Part shown: piece by piece, positions 16,401-18,384 of the stretch | Layout: each line of letters begins with the position of its first letter | How positions within the stretch are numbered: position 1 is the stretch's first letter | Source of the DNA: Parcubacteria group bacterium | GTDB lineage: Bacteria; Patescibacteriota; Minisyncoccia; Moranbacterales; UBA2206 | Reading direction: 5' to 3' | Assembly: GCA_041661275.1 (NCBI GenBank) | Contig: JBAZUU010000004.1 | Location: 7,480 to 71,479 of the forward strand | Length of the DNA stretch: 64,000 bases | Notes under the pieces: model-generated | The model's database searches: none | Told to the model about the DNA's origin: nothing | What the model saw: the letters and a program-made list of their open reading frames with translations, nothing else | Made by a program: the position numbers and the translations under genes

Positions 16401-17047
16401 CAGTTGTCAGTGAAATCGACGGGAAGGTTTTGGAAATTGAAAATGTCGACAAAAATATTATTGTCAAAATTGAAGCGACTGACAAAAACAAGACAATCAA
16501 AGAATATCAACTTCCAGCTGGAACAACGGTCAAGGTGGCCACTGGTGATTTGGTCGGAAAGGGATCGCAACTCAATGAAGGTCACATCGATCTTAAAAAA
16601 TATTATAAGATCACTGGCTGGGAAGAAGTTTGTCGCTATATCATTCGGGAAATTCAGGAAGTGTATGCATCACAAGGTGAAGGTATCAACGACAAACATA
16701 TTGAAATTATCATTCGTCAGATGTTTTCTCGCATTAATATTTTGACCGAAGGCGATAGTAATTTCTTGGTTGGCGACATCACAGAAATAGACGAATTTAA
16801 TGAAGAAAACACTCGCGTCAAAGAGCGAAATGGCGAAATGGCCAAAGGTGAAAAAATGCTTCTTGGAATCACCAAAGTGGCTCTTTCCACTGAAAGTTTC
16901 CTCTCTGCGGCGTCTTTCATGGAAACCGCCCGCGTGCTCATCAATGCGGCTGTTGCCGGCAAAGAAGACAAGCTGCGCGGTCTCAAAGAAAACGTCATCA
17001 TCGGAAAACTTATTCCAGCAGGGACAGGGTTTCGGAATATAAAGTAG
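13457..17047 (+). CDS. rpoC: DNA-directed RNA polymerase subunit beta'
   Basis: 1196 aa; zinc-binding [23 protein letters not shown], catalytic [12 protein letters not shown], and a conserved C-terminus. Confidence 0.95.
   Translation: [1196 protein letters not shown]
16989..17047 (+). repeat. 59-bp direct repeat, copy 1 (the last 17 codons plus stop of rpoC)
   Basis: identical to 18326-18384: aaaacgtcatcatcggaaaacttattccagcagggacagggtttcggaatataaagtag. Confidence 0.9.
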
Positions 17048-17084
17048 ATTTTAGCTGTTAGCTTATAGCTTTTAGGATAGAAAA

Positions 17085-17110
17085 AAGCCCCGGATTATCC
17101 GGGACTTTTT
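17085..17110 (+). terminator. rho-independent terminator after rpoC (cccgga-tta-tccggg + ttttt)
   Basis: G/C hairpin followed by a T-run. Confidence 0.6.
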
Positions 17111-17122
17111 AATAAGGAAAAC

Positions 17123-17151
17123 TTGACAAATCTTATAATTACTGATAAAAT
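17123..17151 (+). promoter_or_regulatory. promoter TTGACA-17-TAAAAT upstream of the ATPase gene
   Basis: consensus -35 with an AT-rich -10. Confidence 0.4.
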
Positions 17152-17184
17152 TGATAATGTAATCTCATAATTTATAATAATTAT

Positions 17185-18318
17185 ATGAATTATATCCCAA
17201 GATTAATAACAAGTTCCATAGAAAATCGCTTATTTAAGGGAAAAGTCATAATTATCTATGGTGCCAGACAAGTTGGAAAGACCACTTTGGTCAAGAAAAT
17301 TTTAGAAAAATACAGTTCAAGTGGCGATTATTTGAACTGTGAGTTATTATCCGTCCGAAAAGGGCTTTCGGAACCGGAAGCGGTCAAGTTGAAAAAGTTT
17401 CTTGGAAATTATAAAATCATTGTTCTGGATGAAGCTCAAAACATTCCCAATATTGGATTAATTCTCAAAATAATTGTAGATACTTACCCAGAACTGCAGA
17501 TTATTGCTACCGGCTCATCCAGTTTTGATTTAGCGCAAAAAATTTCCGAACCCATGACAGGAAGAACCTTTACTTTTATGCTTTATCCAATTTCGTTAAG
17601 AGAAATTAGACAAAAAGAAAATTTAATCGAAGTAGAGGCAAAACTGGAAAGTTTGTTAAGATTTGGAAGTTACCCGGAAATACTGACTCTAAGTGAAGGT
17701 GAATCCAAGGAGCGTCTCAACGAAATCGCGTCCAAATATTTATATAAAGATATTTTAAGTTTCGAAGGTCTTAAGAAGGCTGATGTTATAAGAAATCTTC
17801 TGGAACTTTTGGCTCTTCAGTTGGGCAATGAAGTTTCTTATAATGAATTGGCCACAAAACTTGGAATTGATCGGTTAACCGTTCTAAAATATATAAATAT
17901 CTTGGAACAATCATTTGTTGTTTTTCGTCTAAGGGCTTTCAGTCGAAATCTTCGAAAAGAGATATCCAAATCGGTTAAAATATATTTTTATGATTTGGGC
18001 GTCAGAAACAGTATAATTGAAAGCTATAACCGGCTAGATGTAAGAAACGACACTGGAGCGTTGTGGGAAAATTTTTGTATCGTGGAAAGAAAGAAAAATA
18101 ACGAAAGCGATTTCCGATTTGTGAATTCATATTTTTGGCGCACATATGATCAAAAAGAAATTGATTATATCGAAGAAAAAGACGGCCAACTTCGTGGATT
18201 TGAATTTAAATGGAACGCGAAAAAGGACATAAAATTACCAAAAGAGTTTATAAAAAGCTACAACGCGACGGTGGAAAAAGTTGATCCGGAAAATTATTGG
18301 AAGTTTTTGAAACTATAA
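17185..18318 (+). CDS. AAA+ ATPase with a C-terminal DUF4143 domain
   Basis: Walker A GARQVGKTT; Walker B IVLDEAQ; C-terminal region typical of DUF4143 proteins. Confidence 0.75.
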   Translation: MNYIPRLITSSIENRLFKGKVIIIYGARQVGKTTLVKKILEKYSSSGDYLNCELLSVRKGLSEPEAVKLKKFLGNYKIIVLDEAQNIPNIGLILKIIVDTYPELQIIATGSSSFDLAQKISEPMTGRTFTFMLYPISLREIRQKENLIEVEAKLESLLRFGSYPEILTLSEGESKERLNEIASKYLYKDILSFEGLKKADVIRNLLELLALQLGNEVSYNELATKLGIDRLTVLKYINILEQSFVVFRLRAFSRNLRKEISKSVKIYFYDLGVRNSIIESYNRLDVRNDTGALWENFCIVERKKNNESDFRFVNSYFWRTYDQKEIDYIEEKDGQLRGFEFKWNAKKDIKLPKEFIKSYNATVEKVDPENYWKFLKL

Positions 18319-18325
18319 CGCGCAA

Positions 18326-18384
18326 AAAACGTCATCATCGGAAAACTTATTCCAGCAGGGACAGGGTTTCGGAATATAAAGTAG
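18326..18384 (+). repeat. 59-bp direct repeat, copy 2 (a non-coding duplicate of the rpoC 3' end)
   Basis: exact copy of 16989-17047; followed by its own hairpin/T-run at 18386-18416. Confidence 0.9.

Follow-up and report, generated by a model that had tools for sequence, protein, structure and literature searches.

A second rpoC tail behind a PDC-S01-type ATPase-nuclease gene in a Parcubacteria genome: probably a scar of microhomology-mediated recombination rather than an attachment site

The locus at the 3' end of rpoC

The DNA examined here is a stretch of 64,000 nucleotides (nt) from a Parcubacteria group bacterium (assembly GCA_041661275.1, contig JBAZUU010000004.1, positions 7,480 to 71,479 of the forward strand), and this whole stretch is referred to below as the window. 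The host is a Moranbacteria-like bacterium of the candidate phyla radiation (CPR), with an RpoC that is 82% identical to the counterpart in a sister Moraniibacteriota genome. Behind the essential gene rpoC, the window carries a gene for an ATPase of the candidate defence type PDC-S01, and this gene is bracketed by two identical copies of the last 59 nt of rpoC. A first-pass annotation, made from the letters alone, had reported these copies, a hairpin and T-run terminator behind each of them, and a terminator, a promoter and a single AAA+/DUF4143 gene in between, and had proposed either site-specific integration (attL/attR) or an insertion followed by duplication. Exact-repeat comparison, Pfam searches and promoter and terminator analysis bear out this anatomy, including the regeneration of the rpoC 3' end by the repeat and the statement that no integrase lies between the copies, where the only open reading frame (ORF) is that of the AAA_14/DUF4143 protein. 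The proposals on origin fared differently, as described in the next section. The features of the locus are as follows.

13457..17047, + strand: rpoC, RNA polymerase beta' subunit, 1196 aa, complete (Pfam Rpb1 domains 1-5)
16989..17047, + strand: R1, repeat copy 1, the functional rpoC tail (last 19 codons and TAG of rpoC)
17048..17076, + strand: four diverged heptamers (ATTTTAG CTGTTAG CTTATAG CTTTTAG), then G, directly after the rpoC stop (read from the sequence)
17082..17110, + strand: terminator A (A-tract, hairpin, U-run), core 17089-17103, -14.5 kcal/mol, z -3.3
17122..17184, + strand: cassette promoter and conserved 63-nt leader (TTGACA 17123-17128, TAAAAT 17146-17151), the left limit of cassette conservation
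17185..18318, + strand: PDC-S01-type ATPase, 377 aa (AAA_14 NTPase, winged helix-turn-helix, DUF4143 PD-(D/E)XK domain)
18319..18325, + strand: cassette 3' flank CGCGCAA, 7 nt, homologous by alignment to ACGCAAG/ACGCAAC of sister genomes
18324..18331, + strand: AAAAAACG, an 8-mer at the join of cassette flank and R2, recurring at 18394-18401 at the start of terminator B
18326..18384, + strand: R2, repeat copy 2, a non-functional rpoC-tail copy (exact-repeat comparison)
18385..18432, + strand: CTTTTATGG, then terminator B, core 18395-18427, -18.2 kcal/mol, z -5.8

R1 and R2 form an exact direct repeat of 59 nt with a spacing of 1337, and 100 dinucleotide shuffles gave a chance expectation of 0 for an exact repeat of this length. 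The identity reaches 65 nt with one mismatch (A/C at 17048/18385), past which six further bases match. No third copy of the rpoC tail was found in the window, either at three or fewer mismatches or by local alignment, and tRNA and Rfam scans of the window gave no matches. R2 lies in frame behind the ATPase stop codon, for which the odds by accident are 1/3; the shared frame is probably a coincidence. The counterpart copy at a murD locus described below is out of frame. Read-through of the ATPase TAA (18316-18384) would append 21 residues encoded by the displaced rpoC tail.

Might the repeat be a product of assembly, with a contig end collapsed or duplicated, as the first-pass annotation had considered? 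An independent ENA k141 contig is identical to the window over 21,134 nt, and the k-mer of that assembly exceeds the length of the repeat. Logan unitigs of two other samples (SRR6484324 and SRR18595301) are exact substrings with an end that falls 30 nt inside the repeat; this is what a de Bruijn graph at k=31 gives for a true two-copy repeat. With nothing in its favour beyond the general risk of metagenome assembly, an artefact is hardly credible.

The protein encoded between the repeats matches AAA_14 (6e-29, residues 19-141) and DUF4143 (3e-39, residues 188-344) in Pfam, and residues 4-375 match the PADLOC hidden Markov model (HMM) of PDC-S01, PDLC04789, over profile positions 2-373 of 375 (E 3.9e-151). 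Walker A (G26-T34, with K32-T33-T34), Walker B (D82-E83), D327 and E340-x-K342 are invariant in an alignment of 26 homologues; the last two make up the PD-(D/E)XK nuclease motif, which is intact. In an AlphaFold2 model (mean predicted local distance difference test score, pLDDT, 81.5), DSSP assigns an alpha-beta-beta-beta-alpha-beta order to residues 290-366. The top solved structures found by Foldseek are Orc1/Cdc6 and the Apaf-1/NLR STAND NTPases, both weak matches (template modelling, TM, scores of 0.2-0.4), with MarR/ArsR-type winged helices for the middle domain; a sequence search of the PDB with the ATPase gave no significant match. Profile matches and predicted fold together identify the protein as a P-loop ATPase of STAND/Orc1-like build that carries a winged helix and, at its C-terminus, a PD-(D/E)XK nuclease, and that belongs to the PDC-S01 type. 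The likeness to PDC-S01, a phage-defence candidate of PADLOC that corresponds to COG1373, covers the near full-length HMM match, the domain order (ATPase, then PD-(D/E)XK), the single-gene habit and the wide, patchy distribution. Antiviral STAND NTPases and Orc1/Cdc6-type AAA+ proteins share the predicted fold, and the combination of NTPase, winged helix-turn-helix and nuclease effector fits the STAND sensor logic; the window protein, however, is much smaller (377 aa), has no sensor repeat domain and resembles them only at the TM scores given above.

PDC-S01 has been described as a widespread ATPase fused to a PD-(D/E)XK domain whose experimental validation is pending (PMC12988326), and DUF4143 has been assigned to the PD-(D/E)XK superfamily (PMC3424549). 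In a published survey it ranked as the fourth most common defence system across prokaryotes, and repeated transfers between bacteria and archaea have been reported (PMC12988326; also PMC13356809). A defence role of the candidate ATPase-nuclease would agree with its neighbourhood, which holds MazF and an MNT-HEPN pair in the window and Fic in a sister genome. Copies with 45-60% protein identity occur across many phyla; a plasmid collection yielded nine distant ATPase homologues only, and a scan of a viral contig collection with the ATPase returned no relatives.

The sequence conserved along with this gene has sharp limits. In the upstream alignment of 11 cassettes whose proteins are 64-100% identical to that of the window, conservation starts exactly at the -35 box, (C/A)TTGACAAATATCA…, and spans the 63-nt leader to the ATG, with nothing shared farther upstream; downstream it ends 6-8 nt past the stop codon. 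The promoter (TTGACA-17-TAAAAT with TG extension, 17123-17151; score 11/12) is a near-consensus extended -10 promoter of the sigma-70 type. No inverted repeats that pair the ends of 17048-18325 were found, and with such sharp limits the conserved unit is simply promoter, leader and gene. The leader (TTGACAAATATCAwAATTw…ATAAwATTGAnAwTnTAAT…) is kept at the DNA level although the proteins are 64-81% identical and the contexts unrelated, as judged from window positions 17122-17184 and the sequences upstream of the ATPase ATG at ten loci (L016, L017, L018, L019, L020, L022, L177, L180, L183 and L184). It shows an AATAT…ATATT symmetry around the -10 region and may serve as an operator to which the winged helix of the encoded protein binds.

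Sister genomes and the junction behind the cassette

Orthologues of the ATPase lie in the same rpoC-downstream island of two sister genomes, RIFOXYA12_FULL_35_19 (L004 = L016) and UBA12116 (L017), whose RpoC proteins are 81-82% identical to that of the window, and there they have different neighbours. The order in L004 is rpoC, a 62-aa ORF, Fic, a 258-aa ORF, the ATPase and ftsK; in L017 it is rpoC, a 159-aa ORF on the minus strand, the ATPase and further genes. Neither L004 nor L017 has an rpoC-tail copy after the cassette. Their rpoC has no second tail, and the cassette stands elsewhere in the island. At the DNA level the cassettes of the window and L004 are 75.4% identical, beside 74.7% for rpoC and 76.0% for recA. 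Since the split from the sister species the cassette has thus kept pace with rpoC and recA in its divergence, which makes it old in the island and not a recent arrival; the perfect 59-nt repeat must hence be a recent event, local or within the species. The earlier suggestion of an insertion followed by duplication comes close to what these comparisons indicate.

The two sisters also share a terminator, here called T, with a spread of copies around rpoC and the cassette. L017 has one copy, with a difference at 1 of 29 positions, some 60 nt past the rpoC stop and a diverged one upstream of the cassette, and in L004 one copy follows the small ORF behind rpoC and another the ATPase (copies at 3667-3699 and 7142-7174 in L004, and at 2829-2857, 3772-3803 and 5144-5172 in L017). 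T was considered as merely the cassette's own terminator and this was rejected, since the same element stands directly after rpoC in L017, which makes T a repeated terminator family of the rpoC region. The right-hand flanks of the T copies are interchanged between L004 and L017 (a flank like the Fic promoter against one like the ftsK promoter), an arrangement suggestive of blocks permuted through recombination at T. Both sisters further hold a truncated extra copy of the cassette promoter with the first three codons (…ATGAATTA) about 40 nt upstream of the full cassette (5832-5899 against 5941-6008 in L004; 3830-3897 against 3941-4008 in L017), which looks like a remnant of a former tandem cassette or of an insertion into the 5' end of the cassette.

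Nowhere in the 64 kb of the window is the match to T better than at terminator B (p<=0.0003); terminator A resembles T as well (p 0.0003-0.002), and the two align with each other (p 0.002-0.008) at about 70% likeness with indels. A and B thus appear to be diverged members of the rpoC-terminator family of the sister genomes, and terminator A, by its position and form, is the predicted end of rpoC transcription. The bases past the rpoC stop of L004 are TAGCTTTTAGG; they recur after R2 as TAGCTTTTATGG and at the end of the heptamer array behind R1, whose last unit recreates TAGCTTTTAGG. R2 is followed by one heptamer unit only, against four after R1, and TAGCTTTTA occurs in the window at 17066 and 18382 only. 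Read in this way, CTTTTATGG with terminator B would be a native-looking rpoC 3' context. The layout of the window is rpoC tail, heptamers, T-like terminator A, 12 nt, cassette, 7 nt, rpoC-tail copy, CTTTTATGG and T-like terminator B, and the patch of rpoC tail is bracketed by AAAAAACG at 18324-18331 and 18394-18401.

The left edge of this patch can be placed by alignment. In the sister genomes the sequence from the ATPase stop onward is TAA-ACGCAA(G/C)-AAAACGCCTTGGGAAATCTGAGGCGTTTTTTGA, the latter being terminator T (ACGCAA(G/C)|AAAACG CCTTGGG…). The window reads TAA-CGCGCAA-AAAACG-TCATCATCGG…, and rpoC has …CTCAAAG-AAAACG-TCATCATCGG…. It is inside AAAACG that homology to the sister cassettes stops and identity to rpoC begins. 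This microhomology of 6-8 nt (AAAACG, up to AAAAAACG) occurs both in rpoC codons E-N-V and in the terminator A-tract directly behind the cassette of the sisters, and it falls within the 3-10 nt common to both parents that mark a microhomology junction. Since a 6-nt match at the breakpoint is unexpected by chance, it argues for microhomology-mediated joining. A further indication comes from the unequal ages of the parts: the tails agree at 59/59 positions, the terminators at about 70% with indels, and the heptamers have diverged, which does not fit one old duplication and fits a recent copying or splicing of the tail beside old terminators.

On balance, these comparisons of sequence favour the view that the 59-bp repeat is probably a recent scar of recombinase-independent, microhomology-mediated recombination and not an att site. 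A second native rpoC 3' end, made up of the 59 nt, CTTTTATGG and a terminator of the rpoC family, would have been joined to the 3' flank of the cassette inside AAAACG. The route itself may have been one of two. In the first, two versions of the island would have been spliced, one with rpoC, A, cassette and T… and the other with rpoC, CTTTTATGG, B and MazF…, by homologous pairing in the shared core gene on one side and a join at the AAAACG microhomology on the other. In the second, a double template switch would have taken place in one genome at two terminator hairpins during replication or repair, the nascent strand leaving at the A-tract of the cassette terminator, copying about 68 nt of rpoC tail and returning at the next A-tract. 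Either product would be viable: the upstream copy keeps rpoC complete, terminator A would end its transcript, and R2 would be an inert passenger in the 3' untranslated region of the ATPase. An essential gene such as rpoC can thus tolerate rearrangement in its last codons, with the copy that came in or was kept supplying the complete tail and terminator and the displaced tail inert.

Processes of this kind have precedents. Homology-facilitated illegitimate recombination is known from naturally transformable bacteria, and microhomology-mediated template switching is known from break-induced replication. As there, one junction would lie in extended homology (the core gene) and the other at a microhomology of 3-10 nt, no dedicated recombinase is involved, and foreign or ectopic DNA is trapped beside a conserved gene. 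The present case differs in that it is read from sequence only and that the anchor tail is duplicated rather than showing the usual deletion.

Several observations weigh against the recombination scar. The two routes fit the details equally well. Parental-type layouts, cassette then terminator and rpoC then terminator, occur in the sister genomes, and no conspecific parental form was recovered; neither the empty site nor an alternative version of the island nor a donor genome turned up in the collections searched. The likeness of the terminators may partly be a convergent A-tract, hairpin and U-tract form, a form that the shuffle tests leave uncontrolled. The PDC-S01 family shows an excess of long flanking repeats (7/68 loci against 0/260 control genes), and the same design recurs at an unrelated murD locus (L177), a recurrence that hints at a mechanism linked to the cassette; both are taken up in the next section. 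The searches behind these negatives were of several kinds. A degenerate pattern of rpoC body, tail and post-R2 flank, which took up the first-pass suggestion of looking for an empty site, gave 0 hits in both the metagenome contig and the genome contig collections. Exact-protein look-ups with the ATPase, RpoC and MazF returned only occupied forms of the same species, every sample being occupied. Among the matches listed in a metagenome scan with the RpoC C-terminus, relatives were at most 64% identical and none had the ATPase downstream, and the closest MazF homologues (83%) lie on contigs of about 1.3 kb in other contexts with no empty-site information.

The mixture of identical tails and diverged terminators could also have come about if an old duplication of rpoC tail and terminator surrounded the cassette, the tails being homogenised later by gene conversion, with the rpoC copy under selection as donor, and the terminators being left to drift. 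That A and B belong to one family, that the sister genomes show terminator, cassette and terminator, and that the cassette is old in the island all agree with this. It is nevertheless improbable, because the sisters have no rpoC-tail copy behind the cassette, so that two losses or one gain would be needed, and because conversion is an unlikely source of a sharp-edged tract of 59 nt and a junction accounts better for the left edge at AAAACG.

In the integration that the first-pass annotation had put forward, attB would correspond to the rpoC tail and attL and attR to the repeats, and an element of 1.3 kb would have entered with the help of an integrase encoded elsewhere or since lost. The resemblance is real: islands at the 3' ends of tRNA, tmRNA or protein genes also have a direct repeat that regenerates the end of their target, here that of an essential gene, with accessory or defence cargo behind it, and the murD case of L177 looks alike. 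At the loci of the homologues, however, the repeats are unrelated in sequence and range from 18 to 165 nt, with no att core in common. The 5' edge of R2 lies in microhomology to the ancestral cassette terminator, and the duplication runs on, diverged, into the terminator, so that its unit is the rpoC tail with terminator and not a short core site. Recombinase Pfam families were absent from the interval between the repeats, from 10 kb on either side and from 10 further ORFs of the window, a scan that is not exhaustive for the 64 kb; neither integrase nor transposase is thus at hand, and the cargo is a single 1.3-kb gene. The cassette has co-diverged with its host, and no empty site appeared in the collections searched. 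Taken together, the proposal is unsupported and site-specific integration is quite improbable. An array of att sites was rejected as well, as no third or degenerate rpoC-tail copy lies at the far end of the island.

Other element types were considered and set aside. A DDE or other transposon or insertion sequence does not fit, as the ends have no inverted repeats and the duplications, of 59-65 nt in the window and 18-165 nt at other loci, are not of short fixed length. Contigs of about 1.3 kb among the Logan homologues were examined as possible circles; breaks of the assembly graph, either at repeats or at the conserved promoter, account for them. The island does resemble integron cassette arrays or integrase-less attC clusters in consisting of single-gene units separated by related hairpins, namely T-like terminators in the window, L004 and L017 and repeat-gene-repeat arrays in L022 and L042. 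Unlike integron cassettes, those of the island have their own promoters, and their hairpins are A-tract/U-tract terminators without attC R and L boxes. With a strong promoter of its own, intrinsic terminators as hairpins and no IntI or other integrase found, the ATPase gene was not classed as an integron gene cassette.

Flanking repeats across the PDC-S01 family

Two papers that name PDC-S01 (PMC12988326, PMC13356809) mention neither flanking repeats nor a conserved promoter-leader nor duplications of neighbouring gene tails, and the paper that defines the PDC candidates, in which PDC-S01 is not named, is silent on all three as well. At 68 species-level GTDB loci, the 400 nt upstream of the ATPase were compared with the 400 nt downstream at alignment-score thresholds of at least 15 and at least 25. 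Flanking repeats were present at 12/68 loci at the lower threshold and at 7/68 at the higher. Shifted windows in the same loci gave 0/227 (score at least 15). Genes around rpoC in 80 unrelated bacteria, a control set of 260 genes drawn from the metagenome scan with the RpoC C-terminus, gave 4/260 at the lower threshold and 0/260 at the higher (p 1.3e-5 against the ATPase loci). Among neighbouring genes in the same loci the count at the higher threshold was 6/218, or 2.8% (p 0.016), after the removal of two PDC-S01 paralogues, which had entered as "control" genes with flanking repeats and proved to be family members themselves.

The closest parallel to the window is L177. There murD is followed directly by a cassette 65% identical to that of the window, and the last 23 codons and stop of murD stand on either side of it. 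The second copy of the murD tail starts 6 nt past the ATPase stop, out of frame, and a different hairpin follows each copy, both then continuing with ATTTTTTGTACT. The two tails differ at eight bases, six of them at third codon positions. Such a bias suggests two functional alleles and transfer between genomes, though it is not significant under a fair null: as decisive evidence for a two-allele origin it was rejected, with P ~0.13 if half of the changes fell in the selected copy. Further two-copy duplications were found after TrmB (about 58-69 nt, L012/L018), in L020 (122 nt of neighbouring coding sequence), in L087 (a repeat whose first base lies 15 nt ahead of the stop of the preceding ORF), and in L057 and L077, where local sequence is duplicated too. 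Not all repeats are of this kind. Those of L022 were rejected as cassette-specific, because they form an array like repetitive extragenic palindromic (REP) elements next to a Y1 transposase, and L042 has a generic three-copy array. In L022 (81-3850), repeat-gene-repeat units of hairpin sub-repeats (CGCACACTAAAGTGTGC…) carry a RelE/YafQ-like toxin, the ATPase and the Y1 (IS200-like/RAYT-type) transposase.

Does the family then move in a way of its own? PDC-S01 cassettes, from promoter to stop, could be mobile without a classical recombinase, inserting beside terminators and core-gene tails such as those of rpoC and murD and duplicating the upstream tail with its terminator over tens to more than 100 bases. 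The driver could be the protein's own ATPase-nuclease activity or terminator-stalled copy-choice, and the repeat of the window would then be a target duplication. In line with this, repeats of 18-165 nt stand at the loci and frequencies given above, with paralogues of the family turning up even among the controls; murD, L087 and L020 add tail or coding duplications; the unit has the same sharp limits (-35 box to stop plus 6-8 nt) after rpoC, murD, TrmB and rodZ and next to rpsO; copies with 45-60% identity are found in many phyla; and the nuclease motif is intact. On the other hand, the cassettes have no terminal inverted repeats or conserved end motifs past the functional promoter and stop codon, and the distance from repeat to cassette ranges over 12-340 nt upstream and 6-253 nt downstream. 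About 80-90% of the loci, three close homologues included, have no flanking repeat, some of the repeats are the generic multi-copy intergenic elements just described (L022 and the three copies of L042), and neighbouring genes show repeats as well (2.8%). An identical protein on 18 contigs is always in the same context, the divergence of the cassette in the window matches vertical descent, and a tail at 100% beside terminators at about 70% is not predicted by one duplication event. Mobility of this kind is accordingly judged unlikely for the window locus, though worth pursuing for the family.

A known system with a similar outcome is found in organelle genomes, where free-standing mobile endonuclease ORFs carry a replacement 3' end for the gene that they invade and leave the old tail downstream. 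The likeness lies in a nuclease encoded as a stand-alone ORF after a conserved gene, with a functional tail upstream and a displaced copy downstream, and in the murD tails of L177, which differ mostly at third positions (6/8), as two alleles would. For PDC-S01, homing or specific cleavage would be hypothetical, and the excess of third-position differences does not decide the matter. In the occupied form each junction of the rpoC tail is kept intact once, which argues against a simple homing-type disruption of the site.

The recurrence of tail, terminator, cassette, tail and terminator at two essential genes could simply result from selection, in that only rearrangements that regenerate the gene survive, together with frequent exchange of defence cassettes. 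The locus in the window is best described as a variant of known recombination processes, and the excess of long flanking duplications across the family is a lead. Should a mechanism specific to the cassette lie behind this excess, the view of a very abundant and uncharacterised defence candidate would change; otherwise the locus is just a common scar of recombination. Mobility, if true, would be a new mode of gene-cassette movement and would explain why PDC-S01 is often "embedded" in other loci.

The island between rpoC and ftsK and other repeats of the window

The cassette is part of a small toxin and defence island between two core genes, and it documents this candidate defence gene in a CPR/Patescibacteria genome. 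Two further features belong here.

17048..21750, + strand: variable low-GC island between rpoC and ftsK (22218-24572), GC 33-36% against 42-47% on either side
18445..18877, + strand: next cassette, promoter TTGACT-17-TACTAT and a MazF/PemK-like toxin gene (18494-18877)

The cargo comprises the ATPase, MazF, an EamA transporter, a 2-thiouracil desulfurase, YdjM and a pair of MNT (20868-21266) and HEPN (21269-21658) genes, and the ATPase is one of several stand-alone toxin or defence cassettes stacked in the island. What reshuffles the island appears to be recombination at short homologies and not integrase activity. In a third relative the ATPase stands between two TrmB-family genes, and in others it lies after rodZ, next to rpsO or after murD.

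Outside the island, a 398-aa ORF at 188-1384 has no Pfam match at E<=1e-4, and the ribosomal-protein and core gene region holds several families of intergenic repeats of 50-100 nt, some of them hairpin-forming and REP-like. One family lies at 48335-48436, 49239-49340, 50414-50515 and 55257-55358 and another at 38512-38563, 42043-42094 and 50384-50435, with repeat pairs at 30569-30690 and 43631-43754 and at 42470-42555 and 44176-44263. One pair of window repeats brackets a core gene (48441-49202). Since intergenic repeats flank core genes too, flanking repeats alone are no proof of mobility in this genome.

Two observations on related contigs concern the same gene families. L180, a related CPR contig, has two PDC-S01 paralogues (3001-4131 and 6556-7131) flanking a LexA-like peptidase and recA, and they sit in the conserved gene row ftsK-rodZ-recA, which is uninterrupted in the window. 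The MazF/PemK-like toxin gene of the window has its own promoter and no obvious adjoining antitoxin ORF. A MazF homologue with 83% identity and a similar promoter follows an ABC-transporter gene in another metagenome (L186, 770-1213), and with this different context MazF too behaves as a portable single-gene cassette.

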